A stretch of DNA of 64,000 nt from a virus. Of this stretch, positions 876 through 41,668 are shown piece after piece. The translations under genes were made by a program, and so were the position numbers. The stretch lies in the UHGV virus genome UHGV-2113617; one strand, 5' to 3'. How positions within the stretch are numbered: position 1 is the stretch's first letter; every line of letters starts with the position of its first letter. Under the pieces are notes generated by a model. It worked only from the letters and a program-made list of their open reading frames with translations. It made no database searches and had not been told where the DNA came from.

Positions 876-1850
876 TCACTTCCACTGCATTTCGCATGCT
901 AATTGAATGAAAAGATATGCTAAATGTAATTCCGTATTAGCCGCAATTCCATGATACTGGTTATTTTCACCAACAATTTCATACATACGAATAATACTTT
1001 GCGGAGTTACACGTGTATAGATTTCTTCGGCAAGTTTACCAACGAACCACGAATAATCAGCTGCATATTTTGGTGCTAAAGCTCTGAGCTGTTTAACATC
1101 TTTATTTTTGAGAGACTCAAGAACATCATCAATAGCACCACGATCGTTAGTAACCAGTGATAAAATACCAGCATCCAAAACACCTTTAGATGAATAACTA
1201 TCGAGCTCACCAATAGTTTTACGAAAATCAGGAAAATTCTTTTTAACCAAAGCTGCTACAACTTTCATATCAGCTATAGCAATTCCTTCATGCTTACAGA
1301 TTTCAGTCAATCGACGAATCATCTGCTTCATCATTTCAATTTTATCTTCATCGGTCGGTTGACCGAACGTAATAACTCGGCAGCGTGACTGAAGCGGTTT
1401 AATAATACCATCAATATTGTTAGCAGTAATAATAATACTACAGTTTGAACTATAAGCTTCCATAAAGGAACGAAGATGTCGCTGAGACTCTGCTAACCCT
1501 GAACGGTCAAATTCATCAATAACAATTACTTTTTGACGACCATCAAATGAAGCTGCACTAGCAAAATTAGTCAAAGGACCACGAACGAAATCAATTTTAC
1601 AATCTGACCCATTCACAAACATCATATCAGCATTTACATCATGACACAATGCTTTTGCTACAGTTGTTTTACCTGTTCCTGGAGAAGGAGAATGAAGAAT
1701 AATATGTGGAATCTTACCTTTACTTGTAATAGATTTAAAGGTTTCTTTATCAAAGGCGGGAAGAATACATTCATCGATAGTAGATGGACGATATTTCTGT
1801 TCAAGAATGTGTTCTTTTTCATTTACAGTAATCATAATTTCCTCATTCAA
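876..1850 (-). CDS. 44: clamp loader large subunit gp44 (AAA+ ATPase)
   Basis: 324 aa; Walker A GTGKTT, Walker B VIVIDEFD; T4 synteny. Confidence 0.9.
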
Positions 1851-1869
1851 GTTTTAGTGTAAATTATAA

Positions 1870-1883
1870 AGGGCCGAAGCCCT
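1870..1883 (-). promoter_or_regulatory. intercistronic stem-loop, GGGC-UUCG-GCCC on the transcript
   Basis: Plus strand aGGGCcgaaGCCCt between gene 45 stop and gene 44 start; on the minus-strand RNA the loop is UUCG. Confidence 0.6.
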
Positions 1884-1886
1884 CTA

Positions 1887-2573
1887 TTAAAAATCGTGGG
1901 TAGAATCAGCTTCAAGAGCTACTACATAATTCGCATGTTCACCTTCAAATTTAGCAGCGCCTTGTTTACCTTTTGCCCAGAGAAGAAGTTTATAATTTCC
2001 TGGTTGCATTTTCATATTTGCCATATTGATAATGAAATTAAATGTATTTTCACCATCATAATCACCAAGAGTCAAAGAATATTTAACACGGGTCAAAGCA
2101 GAATCTTCTACTTTGTTAAAACCGTTAATTACAATTTTACCTTCTTTTACTGTGATAGCAATTGTATCAATCTGCAGACCGCGAGATACACGCAACAGCT
2201 GTTGAAGGTCTTCAGCTTTAATTTCAGTAACAACAGATGCTACCGGGAATGGAATTGGTTTATTAGGAGCAACTACTGTACTCGGATCGGCTGCTGGCCA
2301 AAAAATTGTTGAACGGGCATCAGCAATTTTAATATTTCCATCTTCTGACTGGGAAATTTCTGCATCGTCATTAACTAGAGACAGAATACCGAGAAAACCG
2401 TTCAAATCGTAAATCGCTACATCAAAATCAATAGTGTCAGAAATATTTGCTTCTGCATAAGTTGTACCATTAACCGCGCGAGTCATAATAAATTGACCGG
2501 ATTTAAGCATAATACCGGAGTTAATAGTAGCGAAATTTTTAAGCAGAGCAGTAGTATCTTTAGACAGTTTCAT
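1887..2573 (-). CDS. 45: sliding clamp gp45
   Basis: 228 aa, same length and position as T4 gp45 upstream of 44/62. Confidence 0.85.
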   Translation of the reverse strand: MKLSKDTTALLKNFATINSGIMLKSGQFIMTRAVNGTTYAEANISDTIDFDVAIYDLNGFLGILSLVNDDAEISQSEDGNIKIADARSTIFWPAADPSTVVAPNKPIPFPVASVVTEIKAEDLQQLLRVSRGLQIDTIAITVKEGKIVINGFNKVEDSALTRVKYSLTLGDYDGENTFNFIINMANMKMQPGNYKLLLWAKGKQGAAKFEGEHANYVVALEADSTHDF

Positions 2574-2604
2574 GTAATTTCCTTCAATTCAAATGAGATT
2601 TAAT

Positions 2605-2628
2605 TTTATAACTAATTTAATAAAGCAA
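2605..2628 (-). promoter_or_regulatory. putative MotA-dependent middle promoter for gene 45
   Basis: Minus strand reads TTGCTTTA (MotA-box-like) followed about 11 nt later by TATAAA, in the rpbA-45 intergenic gap. Confidence 0.45.
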
Positions 2629-3018
2629 TTAACGATTAAAATCAGCAGCAATTGTTTCCGCAACAATTTGAGCAGCAACAATTAGACGTTCATCTGCATT
2701 ACCGCAATAATCATCTTCAAGGCGTTCACCGCATGAAGTCATAATAAATTTAGCACCAGCATTTAGAGATTCTGTCGTATGTTTGCGCATTAGTTCAATC
2801 CATTTATCACTCACTTCACGATCGATAGCTTCATAATACGCATGACGAGCAGGTGCAGATTTAATTTTATTCTGAATAACTTCCATTGCGTTATCAGAAA
2901 GAGACAAAACCCATGCTCGACGAATTTTATTTTGGTTTTGCGGATTTGATTCAGAACGCACGTGTTTTGGCTGAATATCTTTTACATCAACAGTATAATT
3001 CACAGTAATTTTAGTCAT
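2629..3018 (-). CDS. rpbA: RNA polymerase binding protein RpbA
   Basis: 129 aa ORF immediately upstream of gene 45; length and position as T4 rpbA. Confidence 0.7.
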
Positions 3019-3027
3019 AATACACCT

Positions 3028-3228
3028 TTAGTCATAATAATCAGTAACAGTCCAAGCTTCATTCCTGTTGGACATTATTTTCGTATATTCTGATTTAAAT
3101 GCATTCTTAAGCATAGATTCAGTAACTATATGCTCTTCATTAGAAAAATTATTTCTCAGAATATATCGTTTTATTTCAGGAATAGTTAATAGATGCTGTC
3201 CAGTTGAATATTCCATGTTTTCCTCCAT
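3028..3228 (-). CDS. hypothetical protein (T4 45.2 position)
   Basis: 66 aa ORF between rpbA and gene 46. Confidence 0.55.
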   Translation of the reverse strand: MEENMEYSTGQHLLTIPEIKRYILRNNFSNEEHIVTESMLKNAFKSEYTKIMSNRNEAWTVTDYYD

Positions 3229-3270
3229 AGAGATTATACTCTAATAAATTAAAGCATAATCTCTTATAAA

Positions 3271-4953
3271 TTAAACCATTACAGTAAACCGACCAACTTT
3301 CTTCATTTGGAGATGCTGACCATATGTTTGTGGGTCATGGTCTCTATGCGAAATAACAAAAACGTTAGTATTTTTTAAACTATCTAAAATAGTTGAAATA
3401 GCTTTTACACCTTCAACATCAGTTGCTGAATCAAAAACTTCATCGAGAATTAGTGTGTTTATTTTAACACCTGAAACTTTTTCAGCAATATCACGCCAAG
3501 TAAATAAAAGAGCAATATCAATTCGTGCTTTTTCACCTTGACTAAATGAAGCATAACTAAAATCTTCACGACCACGGGATTTAATTGTTTCATTAAATTC
3601 TTCATCTAATGTAAACACATAATCCGCTTCCATTATTTTAAGATAATGGTTAATCTGCTTATTAAATAATGGAATGTACTTTTTAATAATAGCACCTTTA
3701 ATACCAGAATCTTTGAGCATATCAGTCAAAATTCCTCTGTGGTATTTTTCCATTACTAAATTAGTTTTTGTCTTAACAATTTTATCAAGTTCTTCTTGAA
3801 GCAGTGCTATTTCATCAGCATGGTCAATAAACTCAGATGATGCTTTTTCTATAGCTGCTTTAACTTTTTTAGCTTTATCTACAGTCGTGATTAGAGATTG
3901 CTTTTTATTGCGAATATCATTTGCCAACGTCTGCTGGGTTTTAATATTATCTCGGTATTCATCAACAAGAACTTTTAAATTATCACGATGTGTTGAAAGC
4001 TGTTCAAACGAATGCGTGCATTCAGAAACTTTATCTTTAATTTTAGAAACAACTTTATCACCGGAACTTAATTGTGACAAACAGGTTGGACATAATCCAC
4101 CTTCGTGATACATATTAATGACTTTATTATACGAGTCAATTTTTGATTTAATTAAAAATGCTTCTTGACCGATTTTATTAAATGCATCAGTCGGGTCTTC
4201 ATCCAAAACAATATTAACTAATCTTTCATTAGCTTCTTCTATTTCCGATTTTAGCGTTCTAGCTTCTTTTGCCAAATCATCATACATATTCTGCAGACGA
4301 GTAAGGTTATCACCAGTTAATTTTTTCTGGCGTTCAACGTTATCATTATATATTTTAATTTGTTGGATAATACTATCTTTTTTAACATCAAGCACTTGGT
4401 TTTGTGAATTTAATTCACGTATTAGTGCTTTATTAAGCTTATCCATTTCAGCTAATGTTCCTACCTCAAGCAGGTCTTCCACAAGCTTTCTTCGCGCAGG
4501 GGTCGACAAACCCATGAAAGGGGTATACCCTGCTGTACCAAGGACAACAATCTGCTTGAAACTGGCATATGACATTCCGATAAGCTGTTCAAATTCTGCT
4601 TGGAAATCTTTACTGCTGGCAGATTCATTAAGACGTGTACCGTTAACGGTGATTTCGAAAACGTTTGGTTTTTGTCCTCTTTTGATATAGTACTTTTTCT
4701 CATCATATTCCATCCACAGTTCAACTAAAAGTTCTTTCTTATTTGTGCTGTTTATTAATTGACCTTTCTTTACATCACGAAATGGCTTGCCAAAAAGCCC
4801 AAATGTGATGGCTTCTAACATAGTAGACTTACCACCGCCATTTCGTCCAGTAATAAGAGTTTTTTGAACCTTATCTAGTTGAATGTCAATAGGATTTCCA
4901 CCTACTGACATTATATTTTGATACCTAACTCGATTTAGTTTAAAATTCTTCAC
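3271..4953 (-). CDS. 46: recombination endonuclease subunit gp46 (Rad50/SbcC-like ATPase)
   Basis: 560 aa; N-terminal Walker A GRNGGGKST, long central coiled coil, C-terminal ABC-type ATPase region; T4 gp46 length. Confidence 0.9.
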   Translation of the reverse strand: MKNFKLNRVRYQNIMSVGGNPIDIQLDKVQKTLITGRNGGGKSTMLEAITFGLFGKPFRDVKKGQLINSTNKKELLVELWMEYDEKKYYIKRGQKPNVFEITVNGTRLNESASSKDFQAEFEQLIGMSYASFKQIVVLGTAGYTPFMGLSTPARRKLVEDLLEVGTLAEMDKLNKALIRELNSQNQVLDVKKDSIIQQIKIYNDNVERQKKLTGDNLTRLQNMYDDLAKEARTLKSEIEEANERLVNIVLDEDPTDAFNKIGQEAFLIKSKIDSYNKVINMYHEGGLCPTCLSQLSSGDKVVSKIKDKVSECTHSFEQLSTHRDNLKVLVDEYRDNIKTQQTLANDIRNKKQSLITTVDKAKKVKAAIEKASSEFIDHADEIALLQEELDKIVKTKTNLVMEKYHRGILTDMLKDSGIKGAIIKKYIPLFNKQINHYLKIMEADYVFTLDEEFNETIKSRGREDFSYASFSQGEKARIDIALLFTWRDIAEKVSGVKINTLILDEVFDSATDVEGVKAISTILDSLKNTNVFVISHRDHDPQTYGQHLQMKKVGRFTVMV

Positions 4954-22347: not shown

Positions 22348-23316
22348 TTATTTCAGAAGAGTAACCTCAGCAATTTCTTCCCAACCGTTTTTGTCGGTCA
22401 TAATAAAGTCAGCAAGATAAAGAGCAGTACGCAGTGAAACATTGCGTAAACGATTAACATTAACTTTCATCCATGATAATGCTTTATAAGTTTCTTCATC
22501 AGAAAGACCGCGCTTTTGCATCATGTCAGTTGAAAGAATAACATCTTCAACCCTGACCATAATTTCTTCATTAGTGTGAACACCCAAATCTAAATAAACT
22601 GAGCGGGACACTAATGCTTGTAAATGTGGAGCAAGTTTAGTACCACGGTCTAATTCGCGGTCAATGTCAACGTTTGTGATAAAAACAATCGTTCCTTTAA
22701 ATTCAAACTCACGGTCAATGCCTTTTTCTTCTAAGTAAGAAGATGCAGTGCTCCAGCAGACTTTACGGGTCTCTCCAGTGTCCAGAGCAGCTTTTAGAAG
22801 ATTAAGAATGTCCATATCAGAGAAAACATCCACATCATCAATCAAAAGGACAGAATTCTCTTCACGATTATTCCAAAGCTGTTCATAAAGACCAATACCA
22901 GAGATTTTACCGTTAATGCTTTTATATTCAATGTATCCATTATCATTTGCTTTATTTAAAGCTTTATCTAAAGAATACGTTTTACCAATACCTGCTGCGC
23001 CAGAGATAATCAATGAACGAATATTTCCATTAATAATACCATTCGTCATCATTCCCATAACATTAAATCTTTTATTAATGCGGGTTTTCATATCTTCATA
23101 TGATTCTTTAACTTCTTCAACTTTTACACCATCATATGAAATATCTGATTTGTAAACCCAAACACCGCGACGTTTACCGTCAATTTCAACAAAAACTTTA
23201 CCATCTCCTTGTGCATCTACCGGAGCATTATCTGGGAACCATTCGCCTAAGAGCTCAAAAGTTCCAGAGATTTCTTTACCGAAGTAGATACCCTTATTGA
23301 TAGTTACAGTTTTCAT
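22348..23316 (-). CDS. P-loop NTPase (AAA-like ATPase)
   Basis: Start at ATG 23316 (GGAGAA SD), 322 aa; Walker A GAAGIGKTYS, Walker B VLLIDDVD. Confidence 0.65.
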   Translation of the reverse strand: MKTVTINKGIYFGKEISGTFELLGEWFPDNAPVDAQGDGKVFVEIDGKRRGVWVYKSDISYDGVKVEEVKESYEDMKTRINKRFNVMGMMTNGIINGNIRSLIISGAAGIGKTYSLDKALNKANDNGYIEYKSINGKISGIGLYEQLWNNREENSVLLIDDVDVFSDMDILNLLKAALDTGETRKVCWSTASSYLEEKGIDREFEFKGTIVFITNVDIDRELDRGTKLAPHLQALVSRSVYLDLGVHTNEEIMVRVEDVILSTDMMQKRGLSDEETYKALSWMKVNVNRLRNVSLRTALYLADFIMTDKNGWEEIAEVTLLK

Positions 23317-23352
23317 TTTATTCTCCAATTTCACATTTGTTTTGATAGGGTA

Positions 23353-23385: not shown

Positions 23386-23649
23386 TTATTTTAATGTTCG
23401 CCAAATTTTTACTGCTTCGCGACGAGATACTTCTACAGCTCCAAGTTCTACGGCTTTTTGGCGGTGGCGCGCGTGTAAGTCATAATGTTTAATGCGTTTA
23501 TCTTGAAACCAAGAGCGTTTCATTCCTATTGCTTCTGCCATTTCATGAAGCTCTTCAATATCTCCATCAGTGAACATATGACAATTTTTAGTTGGATGAC
23601 CGCGAAGTTTCCATCCATGATTCATTAAAACATCTACGTAAACTGTCAT
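23386..23649 (-). CDS. DUF4031-like protein
   Basis: 87 aa; MTVYVDVLMNHGWKLRG...HMFTDGDIEELHEMAEAIGMKRSWFQ resembles the DUF4031 family signature. Confidence 0.5.
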   Translation of the reverse strand: MTVYVDVLMNHGWKLRGHPTKNCHMFTDGDIEELHEMAEAIGMKRSWFQDKRIKHYDLHARHRQKAVELGAVEVSRREAVKIWRTLK

Positions 23650-23795
23650 TGATTCTGCTCCAAATATGTTTCTATAATTTTCTGAGCGAGATAAACTGCG
23701 TTATCTTCAGTTGCATCTTCTAAGAAATTTTCAAAACAAGCTGAAATCTCTTCTGTGTCAATCAACTTTTTTACTTCAATTAACGTAGTTTTCAT
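23646..23795 (-). CDS. hypothetical small protein
   Basis: Start at ATG 23795 (MKTTLIEVKK); the track's MVLYNYQL extension overlaps the promoter -10 and is rejected. Confidence 0.45.
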   Translation of the reverse strand: MKTTLIEVKKLIDTEEISACFENFLEDATEDNAVYLAQKIIETYLEQNQ

Positions 23796-23830
23796 TTTAT
23801 TCCCCCAAATCCACATCAGTTGATAGTTGT

Positions 23831-23860
23831 ATAGTACCATAAAGCTTTATGCTTGTAAAC
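23831..23860 (-). promoter_or_regulatory. T4-type early promoter (GTTTACA-17-TACTAT)
   Basis: Minus strand cacaaagttGTTTACA agcataaagctttatgg TACTAT. Confidence 0.55.
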
Positions 23861-23908
23861 AACTTTGTGACGTCATTTTAAACAAAAAGGGAGACCGAAG
23901 GCTCCCTA

Positions 23909-24922
23909 TCATTTATAATAACTTCGGTGGTTTTCAAGATATACCTCTTCAACGAACTTGTCCCAGAACTTCATGTCTACCTTATCAGGCATACCGTTCT
24001 TAGCTGCCTGGATGGCTAGGACTTCAACCAAATCAACAGTATCTTCAAGAAGTTCTTGAACTTCTTTAAATGGTAATTCACCGGCTTTAATCAGCTTAAT
24101 GATAGAGGCTTCGCGCAATGGGAACGCCAAATCACCTGTTTGGTAGATTTCCATCAATTGATACCCTGCGCGATAAGCATGACTCAGAGCTTTCCAGTCA
24201 ATACCTTCATTAGCTTCAGCCTTACGAGCACGTTCACCATATTCCGCATCGAGCTTATTCAGAGATTGCTTGAGCTCGATTAAAGACAAGGTGGTTTGGT
24301 ACTTACGTCCAAGAACAGTATAGAACGTTTGAGGACCTGTTTTCTCGTGGTTATGGAATACCCATTCACAGAACTCGTTTTCAGGAAGCCGATGTTTAAT
24401 ATCTACAATTTTAGTACGACGTTGTCCTTGTGTTCCATCTTCTCGGTAATCAACCCACTGATCGGGGATTTGATTAACTACTTTCAATACATTACGCAAT
24501 GCAGCCAAACGAGAACCCTTAACACCATATTTAGAAGCTTGCTTGCGCACATATCCTAAATAGGCTTTCATGTTAGTTGTATAAAACCGTGAACGATTGT
24601 CTTGGATAAATTTCCATACATCAGGCAAATCAGATTTAACTACTAGTTCAGGCGGAGTGTGAAGCATATCCAATGCTACAGTTTCACCGTCTGCTGCTAA
24701 TTTAAAGAAATACTTAAGACTGTATAGTTCATGGTCAATATCATCTTTAGTGTTTTTAGATGATGTGTTGTTAGTGTTTTTACTCATATGCTCTTTAACA
24801 TTTCCGATAAGAATATCGCGAGCAGGAGGAACAAAGATTTCTTTAAAATCTACATCAGATTCTGGAGTAGAAGTTCCATAAAGATGACTACCAAAATAGC
24901 TTTTCATTACTGTTTTCATCAT
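23909..24922 (-). CDS. Pol-beta-fold nucleotidyltransferase, function unknown
   Basis: 337 aa; N-terminal FGSHLYGTSTPESDVDF (GS-x10-DxD) then ALDMLH, the minimal nucleotidyltransferase signature; large helical C-terminal domain. Confidence 0.6.
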   Translation of the reverse strand: MMKTVMKSYFGSHLYGTSTPESDVDFKEIFVPPARDILIGNVKEHMSKNTNNTSSKNTKDDIDHELYSLKYFFKLAADGETVALDMLHTPPELVVKSDLPDVWKFIQDNRSRFYTTNMKAYLGYVRKQASKYGVKGSRLAALRNVLKVVNQIPDQWVDYREDGTQGQRRTKIVDIKHRLPENEFCEWVFHNHEKTGPQTFYTVLGRKYQTTLSLIELKQSLNKLDAEYGERARKAEANEGIDWKALSHAYRAGYQLMEIYQTGDLAFPLREASIIKLIKAGELPFKEVQELLEDTVDLVEVLAIQAAKNGMPDKVDMKFWDKFVEEVYLENHRSYYK

Positions 24923-25380
24923 TCAGCCTTATATTCAATAACAGGACATACTTTAGCTTTACGAGCTTTTAAAAATTCGACGATAATAGATTTCTTGGGT
25001 TGAATAGGAGGTAAACCTTTATACGCCCTATCAATATTTTCTACATGTAAAGCATAATCCTTTTTCCATTTATAATCTTTATATTTTTCATGCAGTTGTG
25101 CAGGAATAACAAATGAACCAATAATAAGTAAAACAAGCAAAATGGCAAGTACAAATGCTGATGGAATAAGAGTCCATAAACTACCAAAAATAAGCCATTT
25201 CTGTATGATTTCTGCACAGATGATAGTTAGACCTGCGAGTATAGTACATCCGAAAAAAGAAACGAAAAATGTAGGAATAACAATAGACCAAAAATACGCG
25301 CATAGTGTCTTAGGCCGTTTCCATTCATCATTAAACATTTTGAATAATTTATAGTGCCAAGAGCTTTCATTAATAATCAT
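24919..25380 (-). CDS. membrane protein (2-3 TM helices), translationally coupled to the nucleotidyltransferase
   Basis: 153 aa; hydrophobic stretches; stop overlaps the downstream nucleotidyltransferase ATG. Confidence 0.55.
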   Translation of the reverse strand: MIINESSWHYKLFKMFNDEWKRPKTLCAYFWSIVIPTFFVSFFGCTILAGLTIICAEIIQKWLIFGSLWTLIPSAFVLAILLVLLIIGSFVIPAQLHEKYKDYKWKKDYALHVENIDRAYKGLPPIQPKKSIIVEFLKARKAKVCPVIEYKAE

Positions 25381-25382
25381 AA

Positions 25383-25904
25383 TTATCCTTTCATTGAAGG
25401 TGTAACAGTTGTTAAATACTTAATCATAGCTTCAGATTCTGATTTTGATAATGAAATTTCTTCATTGTTTTGACGAATAGAAATAAAATCCGGATGACGG
25501 TCACGGCCAGCTTTCAAAACACACATATAAGTATCAGTTTCATCTTCAATATTTGAAATGATTGAAGCAGTTCCACATGAATGCGGTTTTTGATAAATCA
25601 ATACGGCTTTTCTTCCACCGTTTGACTGTTCATAAACTTTTAACACATCAAACAAATCACTTCTTTTATCAATAGCTAAGATGTTGTTTTCATCTTCAAT
25701 GTTAAATCCTTCGGATACTTCATAAAGTGTCACCCATAAATCGCCTATATCGATAGTAGCATTTACTTTTCCATGACTTTCAAGAGCATGACAAATTTTC
25801 TTAATTTCGTCATAACTCATTTTAATATTATCATCTCCTTGAATAAGGAAGATGTCATTTTTAAATTCAACACGAATTAAACCACTTTCACTTGAAATAA
25901 ACAT
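25383..25904 (-). CDS. hypothetical protein (paralog pair, member 1)
   Basis: 173 aa; C-terminus ...EAMIKYLTTVTPSMKG resembles the neighbour's ...AVLLKTYLDSVIPTMISK. Confidence 0.55.
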   Translation of the reverse strand: MFISSESGLIRVEFKNDIFLIQGDDNIKMSYDEIKKICHALESHGKVNATIDIGDLWVTLYEVSEGFNIEDENNILAIDKRSDLFDVLKVYEQSNGGRKAVLIYQKPHSCGTASIISNIEDETDTYMCVLKAGRDRHPDFISIRQNNEEISLSKSESEAMIKYLTTVTPSMKG

Positions 25905-25910
25905 ATTTCC

Positions 25911-26462
25911 TCACTTTGAAATCATAGTTGGAATGACAGAATCAAGATAAGTCTTTAATAAAACAGCTTCTTCTTTGTTTAATACAACAACATTAACATC
26001 ATTTACCGATTGACGAATAGTTAAGACATCTCCCTCTTCATAGCATTTTGATACATTTAAAACAGTTTCATAATTTTGATTACAAGCGTTAGTAATAATA
26101 GCATTGCAATTTTTAAACCATTTTAAACCATGTTTTCTTTCATTAGAATAATAGAAATATTTAATCTTAGCTATAAAATTATCCCAATTATTAATTGATA
26201 AGCATATTGACTCGCTTTCAATATTAAATCCTGGGCATAAAGAATAAAAATGAATTTTATGCTCATCATTAATGCTTACAATTTTATCAGTGTATGGTTT
26301 TTCAATTTGGGTTAAATGAATAATTTCGCTAGGCGTAAAATATAGCATATCGTCTTCTTGCGTCAAACGATACATATTATTTACTTTTTCTATAGCCAAT
26401 TCACCAAAAAGTGAACTAACTTCTAGTACTAATCGTTTCATATTAATCCTTTTTATTGGCAT
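25911..26462 (-). CDS. hypothetical protein (paralog pair, member 2)
   Basis: 183 aa; shares C-terminal motif and GFNIE(D/S)E segment with ORF 25383-25904. Confidence 0.55.
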   Translation of the reverse strand: MPIKRINMKRLVLEVSSLFGELAIEKVNNMYRLTQEDDMLYFTPSEIIHLTQIEKPYTDKIVSINDEHKIHFYSLCPGFNIESESICLSINNWDNFIAKIKYFYYSNERKHGLKWFKNCNAIITNACNQNYETVLNVSKCYEEGDVLTIRQSVNDVNVVVLNKEEAVLLKTYLDSVIPTMISK

Positions 26463-40309: not shown

Positions 40310-40386
40310 TGGTCGAGGCAGAAGGATTCTAACCTTCAACCAACGGATTAGAAATCCGTTGCTCTATACAATTGAGCTATGCCCCG
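40310..40386 (-). tRNA. tRNA-Arg (anticodon UCU), CCA encoded
   Basis: Manual fold: acceptor CGGGGCA/UGCCUCG with a G-U pair, D-arm GCUC..GAGC, anticodon loop UUUCUAA, T-arm GAAGG-UUAGAAU-CCUUC. Confidence 0.8.
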
Positions 40387-40389
40387 TAA

Positions 40390-41055
40390 TTAAAATTTCA
40401 TTTTTCGACCTTTAAACCATCCTTCTGGAATTGGGTCAGTTTTCTTAATACGTTTAGAAACTTTTTCATCTAATGAATGAATCCACATCATACCAAATTG
40501 AGAATTCTTTTCACCTTGTTGGTGTTTATTTCTGGCGTGAGATTCTTTCATTTTATTAATAGTTTCAGGAGTATGGGTCTTACCCAAGAAAGATTTAGTA
40601 TTTAAAAATTTCTCTCTATACTTAGGATTATCCCAAAGCTGTTTAAACCTTTCTGAACCCATTTTACGATATTTTTCTTTAAGGTCTGGGTCGTTCTCAA
40701 ATCTGGTTTTAAAAGCGGCAGCTCCTTTTAAGGAAGCTTCTTTCTTTTTATCCAAATATTCTTTAGTGTTTAAATGGTCCCAACCACCTTCACCACCTAA
40801 TTTCAAATTATAAACATCAGGGCGCTTTAAAAACTCTTCAGTCACAATATTCTTTTCTGACTCAAACATAGAGGTTTTATCGTCAAAGAACTCTAATATT
40901 TCTTTAGAAAAATTTTCTATACCATACTTGTCTTGGGCTCTTTTTAATAATTTACCAGAACCCATATATCCATCATCTAAATTTTCGGTAGAATGAGCGC
41001 CTATGTAGATTTTATTATTAATTTTATTTGTTATTTTATAAATGTAATGGAACAT
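40390..41055 (-). CDS. segB: GIY-YIG homing endonuclease SegB
   Basis: 221 aa; N-terminal HYIYKITNKINNKIYIGAHS (GIY...YIG); located between tRNA-Arg and the 7-tRNA subcluster as in T4. Confidence 0.85.
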   Translation of the reverse strand: MFHYIYKITNKINNKIYIGAHSTENLDDGYMGSGKLLKRAQDKYGIENFSKEILEFFDDKTSMFESEKNIVTEEFLKRPDVYNLKLGGEGGWDHLNTKEYLDKKKEASLKGAAAFKTRFENDPDLKEKYRKMGSERFKQLWDNPKYREKFLNTKSFLGKTHTPETINKMKESHARNKHQQGEKNSQFGMMWIHSLDEKVSKRIKKTDPIPEGWFKGRKMKF

Positions 41056-41096
41056 AAATATCTCCTATTTCTAAGAGTATTTATGTTCTCAAAATA

Positions 41097-41168
41097 TGGC
41101 CCTGGGTGGAATTGAACCACCATCTGGCGATTATGAGTCGCTTGCTTGAACCTTCCAGCTACAGGGCC
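41097..41168 (-). tRNA. tRNA-Ile (anticodon CAU; Met not excluded)
   Basis: Manual fold: acceptor GGCCCUG/CAGGGCC, anticodon loop CUCAUAA, T-arm GGUGG-UUCAAUU-CCACC; T4 has a CAU tRNA-Ile here. Confidence 0.75.
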
Positions 41169-41174
41169 TTGATA

Positions 41175-41247
41175 TGCTGATTGACGGAATCGAACCGCCG
41201 ACGTCCTCATTACAAGTGAGTTGCTCTACCTACTGAGCTAAATCAGC
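41175..41247 (-). tRNA. tRNA-Thr (anticodon UGU)
   Basis: Acceptor GCUGAUU/AAUCAGC, D-arm GCUCAGUAGGUAGAGC, anticodon loop CUUGUAA, T-loop UUCGAUU. Confidence 0.85.
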
Positions 41248-41254
41248 GAAATTA

Positions 41255-41341
41255 CGGAGGCGATAGGATTTGAACCTATGAGTCGCCGGAGCGACTGCCG
41301 GTTTTCAAGACCGGTGCATTAAACCACTCTGCCACGCCTCC
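41255..41341 (-). tRNA. tRNA-Ser (anticodon UGA)
   Basis: 87 nt with long variable arm; acceptor GGAGGCG/CGCCUCC; anticodon loop CUUGAAA. Confidence 0.85.
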
Positions 41342-41343
41342 AG

Positions 41344-41417
41344 TCTCCGCGGCAGGATTTGAACCTGCGACATTCTGCTCCCAAAGCAGACGCTCTACCA
41401 AACTGAGCTACACGGAG
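41344..41417 (-). tRNA. tRNA-Pro (anticodon UGG)
   Basis: Acceptor with one G-U pair; D-arm GCUCAGUUUGGUAGAGC; anticodon loop UUUGGGA; T-arm GCAGG-UUCAAAU-CCUGC. Confidence 0.85.
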
Positions 41418-41429
41418 TAAATTAAATTT

Positions 41430-41501
<72 letters not shown>

Positions 41502-41507
41502 AAACTT

Positions 41508-41594
41508 TGGTACGAGAAGTGGGACTCGAACCCACAAGGAAATCATTCCGCAGCATTTTAAGTGCTGTGCCTTTACCAATTTGACCATTCTCGC
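41508..41594 (-). tRNA. tRNA-Leu (anticodon UAA), CCA encoded
   Basis: 87 nt with long variable arm; anticodon loop CUUAAAA; T-arm GUGGG-UUCGAGU-CCCAC. Confidence 0.85.
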
Positions 41595-41595
41595 G

Positions 41596-41668
41596 CTGGG
41601 AATAAAGGACTTGAACCTTTGCATCTAGCAGTCAAAGTGCTATGCCTTACCAACTTGGCTAATTCCCA
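41596..41668 (-). tRNA. tRNA-Gln (anticodon UUG)
   Basis: Acceptor UGGGAAU/AUUCCCA; anticodon loop CUUUGAC; T-arm AAAGG-UUCAAGU-CCUUU. Confidence 0.85.

Follow-up and report, generated by a model that had tools for sequence, protein, structure and literature searches.

A nucleotidyltransferase gene of a T4-like phage is placed as the nrdC.11 orthologue of the RlaP family, and probably serves RNA repair separately from the membrane protein whose gene it overlaps

Background

Among the described enzymes closest to the gene considered here are two from Pseudomonas, PfRlaP (P. fluorescens) and PaRlaP (P. aeruginosa), both encoded in RtcB-RtcA operons and both characterised in a 2025 preprint (PMC12776372). 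They attach one or two nucleoside monophosphates to an RNA 3′-OH, with a cleaved-tRNA mimic being preferred, and they are inactive on DNA or protein, E. coli proteins having been left unlabelled (PMC12776372). The preprint assigns T4 NrdC.11 to cluster 5 of the RlaPs and describes three strictly conserved catalytic aspartates for RlaP, with PfRlaP built of a nucleotidyltransferase (NTase) domain and, C-terminal to it, a helical domain whose final helix folds back against the NTase domain (PMC12776372). An earlier comparative study found RlaP to be the commonest NTase accompanying RNA ligases in jumbo phages, and proposed that its role is to refill nucleotides lost to RloC-type nucleases before ligation. 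A second point of reference is Hailong. Its NTase, HalB, carries out tyrosine-primed oligo-dA synthesis in bacterial defence, according to a review's summary of Tan et al. 2025, and is paired with a membrane channel, HalA, which is tetrameric with a cytoplasmic crown. How does the overlapping gene pair at positions 23909-25380 of a 64,000-nucleotide stretch of the virus genome UHGV-2113617 (that whole stretch being the window in what follows), one gene for an NTase and the other for a small membrane protein, compare with these systems?

In an original prediction, made from the letters alone, the pair was seen as an NTase translationally coupled to a membrane partner, which might form a signalling or exclusion module or a nucleotide-modifying counter-defence, and which could not be placed among the functions described for T4. 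The explanation that now appears probable is that the enzyme is an NrdC.11-type RlaP acting as an RNA-repair or counter-defence accessory, with the membrane-protein gene being a separate matter.

Identity of the nucleotidyltransferase

Both open reading frames (ORFs) lie on the minus strand where they were originally reported, and the features relevant to them are as follows.

23909-24922, minus strand: NTase coding sequence, the orthologue of T4 nrdC.11 (RlaP, PF10127), called as an ORF of 337 residues from the first ATG
24919-25380, minus strand: membrane ORF for a small inner-membrane protein of the PHROG 944 family, the upstream neighbour of the NTase, called as an ORF of 153 residues
24917-24922, minus strand: stop/start junction, ATGATG with the TGA of the membrane ORF embedded, read from the sequence
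24848-24892, minus strand: NTase motif G11-S12-x10-D23-x-D25 (the nucleoside triphosphate (NTP)-binding loop and two metal-binding aspartates), read from the sequence
24668-24670, minus strand: codon of D85, the third catalytic aspartate (ALDMLH strand), from conservation across homologues
23888-23907, minus strand: hairpin resembling an intrinsic terminator (AGGGAGCCUUCGGUCUCCCU, then a U-run), just past the NTase stop, from folding

As judged by sequence comparison, the NTase is the orthologue of T4 nrdC.11 and a member of RlaP (PF10127), and so is a gene already known and one with a place in T4 after all. It aligns with T4 NrdC.11 (NP_049709) over the full length of 336 residues, without a gap and at 86% identity, and the T4 counterpart carries the RefSeq product name ‘nucleotidyltransferase’. 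The region is matched in 734 phage records, with Tequatrovirus predominating, and the T4-like slot is kept, an nrdC.10 orthologue (PHROG 1250) being downstream of the NTase and y05I/MobD.1-type genes upstream, in agreement with the T4-type accessory block that had been recognised as the setting. The match to Pfam PF10127, described as ‘RNA repair pathway DNA polymerase beta family’, scores 50.1 bits (gathering cut-off 23; E = 3.8e-13), and among Pfam families RlaP alone reaches the E <= 0.01 reporting threshold, its gathering score being passed as well. PHROG 388 is matched at 6e-132. An exhaustive search gave relatives in 3,523 clusters at 50% identity, 871 of them with E <= 1e-30, and of 130 diverse homologues sampled all except one matched PF10127. 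With homologous clusters in the thousands for the NTase and in the hundreds for the membrane ORF, a chance origin is discounted and both ORFs are taken as real genes.

The window NTase is itself a mosaic. Its residues 246-337 (window 23909-24186) are 64.1% identical to T4, against 94.7% over residues 1-245, and are closest to the Dhakavirus allele (79.3%), a pattern which suggests intragenic recombination. The allele is present in only about eight phage records at 95% DNA identity or higher. In public records ‘thioredoxin’, a name carried over from nrdC, is a widespread mis-annotation of NrdC.11 orthologues, and one is entered as a ‘putative HNH homing endonuclease’.

Active site and fold

The minimal Pol-beta signature of the original prediction was found as G11-S12, ten residues, D23-V24-D25, and then A83-L-D85-M-L-H88, the codons, checked by hand, being 24890-24892 for G11, 24854-24856 for D23, 24848-24850 for D25 and 24668-24670 for D85. 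In 11 phage genera, with identities as low as 47%, G11, S12, D23, D25 and D85 (the last being the third acidic residue) do not vary, and in 130 diverse members at 34-56% identity the five are conserved to 90% or more. Conservation extends to the C-terminal part of the NTase, in two long basic motifs, RFYTT...GYVRKQAxKYGVKGSRL and EYGERARKAEANEGIDWKALSHA.

An AlphaFold model made from the 130-sequence alignment, with a predicted local distance difference test (pLDDT) value of 94.8 and a predicted template modelling (pTM) score of 0.85, replaced one with a pLDDT of 71.6 and a poor NTase domain that came from a shallow alignment of 25 sequences (70-100% identity). In the later model an NTase domain of alpha/beta type is followed by a beta-rich subdomain, at about residues 155-209, and then by a largely helical region that ends in a long C-terminal helix, 317-336. 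The C-terminal region of about 230 residues, originally proposed as a helical domain, is thus not helical throughout, and as modelled the protein appears consistent with the two-domain description of PfRlaP. The model is likened to minimal NTases (HalB, KNTase), with Foldseek matches at 10-16% identity and none with E < 1e-3, and the nearest solved structure is that of HalB (PDB 9dbh), a DNA-synthesising defence NTase. Searches of PDB sequences with the NTase protein and with the family profile gave no related solved structure. BFVD has the fold widely distributed among phages and giant viruses, the entries being named ‘nucleotidyltransferase’.

RNA-repair context and a proposed role

What might such an enzyme do for a phage? 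One full-length homologue, at 43% identity, is encoded 2 nucleotides downstream of RtcB with a metallophosphoesterase next; another, at 46%, has the gene for an Rnl1-type RNA ligase about 4 kb upstream of it; and a homologue in a Vibrio phage is two genes away from a CCA-adding-type enzyme. Three further distant contexts sampled had no RNA-repair neighbour. By analogy, the contexts of these distant homologues support extension of the RNA-repair reading to the NrdC.11 subfamily, and the earlier idea of a nucleotide-modifying counter-defence comes near to the role proposed for RlaP.

T-even phages are the classic system of tRNA cleavage and repair (PrrC versus Pnkp/Rnl1), and their genomes encode Pnkp, Rnl1 and Rnl2 elsewhere. 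NrdC.11 would be a template-independent, metal-dependent RNA 3′-end nucleotidyltransferase, in which D23, D25 and D85 would hold the metals and G11-S12 would contact the NTP, though this activity is an extrapolation from the two Pseudomonas RlaPs of cluster 1a. Its task may be to patch RNA from which a host ribotoxin has taken a nucleotide. The probable substrate is one half of a tRNA cut by a host anticodon nuclease which also removed a nucleotide, and the phage end-healing and sealing enzymes (Pnkp and Rnl1/Rnl2) could afterwards rebuild a functional tRNA. On this proposal NrdC.11 would be a dispensable counter-defence or repair accessory and not a signalling enzyme. The fragment from nrdC.11 to mobD.3 is missing from a viable genome-reduced T4, and nrdC.11 is dispensable in the laboratory.

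Several points weigh against the explanation preferred here. The PF10127 alignment spans only residues 7-136, the C-terminal two-thirds being outside the Pfam model, and the RlaPs that have been assayed are of cluster 1a whereas NrdC.11 is of cluster 5 (PMC12776372). As the nearest structure is that of the DNA-synthesising HalB, the NTase fold alone leaves the substrate unfixed. A tblastn search of the 64-kb window and of about 90 T4-like loci, in which the queries (RtcB, Rnl1-type, CCA-type and Metallophos) came from distant phages, had matches in the source loci only; no RNA-repair gene was found within 4 kb of the NTase, though diverged ligases could escape such a search. For the T4-like NTase the ligase association therefore holds only at the genome level or in distant relatives. 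Finally, in 46 of 78 loci, drawn from several genera, the NTase has a member of the membrane family on its own strand and no more than 2 kb upstream, and the membrane ORF may have a loose functional link to the NTase.

Two side observations touch on tRNA. The window carries eight phage tRNA genes (Arg, Met, Thr, Ser, Pro, Gly, Leu and Gln) at 40310-41668, minus strand, about 15 kb from the NTase, and if the enzyme serves tRNA repair their products are possible substrates. In Vibrio phage 11895-B1 the annotation of the CCA-adding-type gene (1275-3456 of its locus) joins two segments and has an ORF nested in it, and the gene may be interrupted by an intron or mobile element.

The junction and the membrane ORF

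The minus-strand junction reads GAA-TGA-TGA in the membrane ORF frame and ATG-ATG-AAA in the NTase frame, i.e., an ATGA overlap, so that the start of the NTase does overlap the stop of the 153-residue ORF as first reported. The overlap is 4 nucleotides with the first ATG and 1 nucleotide with the second. The second (24919; 336 residues) is the start in T4 and in most database entries, has a better spacing to an AAGG Shine-Dalgarno sequence than the first, and is likely to be the true one. The hairpin after the NTase folds at -13.5 kcal/mol (z = -3.56), and ‘terminator’ is annotated at the equivalent spot in related phage records. Since a stable hairpin and U-run come right after the NTase stop, the NTase and membrane ORF close a transcription unit. 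No RNA family was matched in an Rfam scan of 21-28 kb.

The membrane ORF has a basic N-terminal tail of about 24 residues, a continuous hydrophobic block at 25-95, with 19-residue Kyte-Doolittle peaks of 2.2 and 3.0, and a very basic C-terminal tail of about 55 residues. By the positive-inside rule this pattern fits two to four transmembrane helices with both tails cytoplasmic, and so the membrane protein of the original prediction stands while its figure of two to three helices is widened. PHROG 944 is matched at 1.3e-49; no Pfam domain was found in it, and no solved relative by family profile. The family, an orphan one, is present in 861 phage records as against 1,518 for the NTase, and in 514 homologous clusters, those listed all being from T4-like phage genomes.

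Across six genera the transmembrane part of the family varies freely while the cytosolic tails have invariant motifs, MxINxxSWH...PxxLCxYFW in the N-terminal tail and AxKxKxCP in the C-terminal one (invariant residues M1, I3, N4, S7, W8, H9, P23, L26, C27, Y29, F30, W31 ... A139, K141, K143, C145 and P146). The invariant histidine and cysteines may belong to a small module that binds a metal or a partner. Compared with Dhakavirus, identity is 86% for the NTase and 35% for the membrane ORF. The membrane ORF is best regarded as an accessory gene of T4-like phages that evolves fast and is separate from the NTase, its protein probably functioning independently of that enzyme. The cytosolic tails are unusually conserved for a family with more than 500 clusters, and the present evidence gives them no tie to the NTase.

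Gene arrangement across lineages

The order of the two genes differs between lineages.

Tequatrovirus (this window): NTase and membrane gene directly adjacent, with a 4-nucleotide overlap
Mosigvirus: directly adjacent, with a 1-nucleotide overlap
Dhakavirus: adjacent, with an 8-nucleotide gap as annotated
Gelderlandvirus: one unrelated ORF separates the membrane gene from the NTase
Karamvirus: two unrelated ORFs separate them
Jiaodavirus: three unrelated ORFs separate them
T4 and RB3: the mobD homing endonuclease gene fills the membrane gene slot
Acinetobacter Acj61, Klebsiella Kiwi and Roth19, Aeromonas Assk: an unrelated soluble ORF is upstream of the NTase
Proteus Pm5461: an unrelated 59-residue membrane ORF is upstream of the NTase

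No remnant of the membrane gene was found in T4 within the regions examined. Among 78 IMG/VR loci with the NTase, the membrane family is adjacent in 13, upstream at 340-1,842 nucleotides in 33 and not within 4 kb in 32. Reciprocally, the NTase is downstream within about 1.2 kb in 29 of 39 full-length membrane-family loci and not within 5 kb in the other 10, and in two genomes of about 230 kb both genes are present tens of kilobases apart.

How informative is the overlap? Of the 78 loci, 55 have the NTase start overlapping the stop of the ORF before it, and among the 65 where that ORF is outside the membrane family the count is 42. In T4 itself, of the 46 successive gene junctions from 38.7 to 60.9 kb, 20 show an overlap, and in eight of these it is exactly 4 nucleotides. 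As overlap recurs with unrelated upstream ORFs and at T4 junctions, it represents generic packing with nothing specific to say on partnership, and the ATGA overlap was rejected as a sign of a two-gene unit of function. What the two genes have is a common transcription unit and a lineage-restricted synteny.

A different and apparently unrelated hydrophobic ORF, of 114-119 residues, overlaps the NTase start by 4 nucleotides in some phages with genomes of 220-233 kb and also in a divergent contig (loci L074, L075 and L080 at about 3645-4004, and L094 at 3648-3992).

Alternative explanations

The original prediction considered a partnership, and a dedicated module of membrane protein and NTase could be imagined as Hailong-like channel gating, as membrane-tethered exclusion or signalling, or as a source of decoy oligonucleotides for host channels. 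Direct adjacency with start/stop overlap in Tequatrovirus and Mosigvirus, and adjacency in Dhakavirus, would be expected of it, as would the same-strand upstream position of the membrane family in those 46 NTase loci and the downstream NTase in 29 of the 39 membrane-family loci, and the conserved cytosolic tails with their invariant H9, C27 and C145 could form an interaction surface. However, T4 and RB3 retain the NTase with mobD in place of the membrane gene, unrelated ORFs, from one to three, intervene in three genera, and the genes can be unlinked, as in the two large genomes, the 10 membrane-family loci where the NTase is not nearby and the 32 NTase loci where the membrane-family gene is not inside 4 kb. 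To this are added the generic nature of the overlap, the discordance in evolutionary rates already seen against Dhakavirus, and a membrane-family profile that matches neither HalA nor any solved relative. With the membrane gene absent from this region of T4, and with insertions and distant pairs elsewhere, a dedicated module is unlikely. What the original prediction had named as grounds for giving it up, a firm known family for the NTase together with an unrelated membrane ORF, is essentially what was found.

Within that alternative, two versions have their own merits. HalB is the top structural neighbour and Hailong does pair an NTase with a membrane channel, so that a Hailong-like reading had to be considered, but each feature by which membership can be judged fails or stays at the level of the fold. 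The likeness to HalB is 16% identity over 163 of 337 residues, with no profile-level sequence relationship; for a HalA partner, the membrane-family profile finds neither HalA nor another solved relative; and the obligate two-gene operon of Hailong has no equivalent here, the pair being broken in T4 and several other genera. The Hailong-like reading of the gene pair thus ranges from unlikely to very unlikely. In the other version the tails of the membrane protein, through H9, C27 and C145, would recruit or regulate NrdC.11 at the inner membrane, and T4 would have lost the module upon mobD invasion; such a module might be Hailong-like, or might make decoy oligonucleotides that keep host nucleotide-gated channels shut. 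We regard this version as very unlikely.

Might the NTase instead nucleotidylylate a protein or small molecule, e.g., by AMPylation in the style of MNT/MntA, DrrA, KNTase/ANT or Tam41? The structural matches that bring such enzymes to mind stay at the fold level, at 10-16% identity and without a Foldseek E < 1e-3. NCBIfam MntA is matched at 15.9 bits against a cut-off of 60, over residues 9-26, i.e., the GS..D loop alone, by which an MNT/MntA type VII toxin-antitoxin was rejected; and no HEPN match, as for a toxin partner, was found with Pfam among the NTase neighbours (the membrane ORF and the small ORFs). RlaP is the sole Pfam family at E <= 0.01, and above its gathering score, the distant homologues adjoin RNA ligases and not toxin or resistance genes, and with the RlaPs that were assayed E. 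coli proteins stayed unlabelled (PMC12776372). A protein or small-molecule target is accordingly quite improbable.

Hardly credible, finally, is a cGAS/DncV-like or OAS-like second-messenger synthase, or a CCA-adding/poly(A) polymerase-type enzyme, options listed with the MNT type in the original prediction and failing with it in profile and fold tests: only the Pol-beta superfamily signature (hG[GS], DxD, D) is shared, no cGAS/DncV-type NTase, OAS or CCA-adding enzyme is among the fold matches, PADLOC defence models yield nothing past a 16-bit loop match, and no match to the PF01743 PolyA_pol head domain was obtained, whereas the genuine CCA-type gene of the Vibrio phage scores 1.4e-16 in a comparable search.

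Other genes of the region

Upstream of the membrane ORF are tandem y05I/MobD.1 paralogues (25383-25904 and 25911-26462, minus strand) where T4 has a single mobD.1. They match PF24449 and PF24448, described as ‘putative transcription factor’. In public records the label ‘molybdopterin-guanine dinucleotide biosynthesis protein MobD’ is attached to the small mobD.x genes, a confusion of gene names.

Between nrdC.11 and nrdC.10, at 23386-23840 on the minus strand, are a 64-residue ORF (PHROG 6888) and an 87-residue DUF4031 protein, T4 having a 114-nucleotide gap there; a DUF4031 ORF is likewise between these genes in Karamvirus myPSH1140, and a literature search on DUF4031 gave nothing relevant. 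Past the terminator hairpin is a promoter-like site (23831-23859, minus strand; TTTACA, 17 nucleotides, TACTAT, with an upstream TG), which from its sequence would restart transcription of the small ORFs and nrdC.10. The nrdC.10 orthologue (22348-23334, minus strand; 328 residues, PHROG 1250) has a Walker-A motif, GAAGIGKT, and weak sub-threshold matches to STAND and AAA NTPase families (nSTAND3, AAA_16).

Comparison with known systems

With NrdC.11 being the phage representative of the RlaP family, the finding is a re-identification of a catalogued T4-type gene. T-even phages are well suited for asking whether RlaP-type enzymes let phages survive nucleotide-excising (RloC-type) anticodon nucleases.

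Of the known systems, T4 NrdC.11 has the same length, catalytic residues and genomic slot, upstream of nrdC.10 and downstream of mobD.1-type genes. The differences are in the mosaic C-terminal 90 or so residues and in the surroundings, the mobD homing endonuclease gene being upstream in T4 where this phage has the membrane ORF, and this phage having the two added small ORFs between nrdC.11 and nrdC.10. With kanamycin/aminoglycoside nucleotidyltransferases and the NTases of MNT-HEPN (type VII toxin-antitoxin) pairs the window NTase shares a minimal Pol-beta core followed by a helical (HEPN-like) substrate-binding region. In Hailong, in contrast, the membrane partner is a channel, whereas the phage membrane ORF has 153 residues without detectable similarity to HalA and the pair is not obligate. 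The bacterial RlaPs are of the same Pfam family, with the three catalytic aspartates and, going by the model, an N-terminal NTase domain plus C-terminal helical region in common, and RtcB, which they accompany, adjoins some NrdC.11-type phage homologues too. Unlike the Pseudomonas enzymes of cluster 1a, the window NTase belongs in cluster 5, is aligned by Pfam at residues 7-136 only, has in its model a beta-rich subdomain at about 155-209, and in T4-like phages has no RNA ligase close by.

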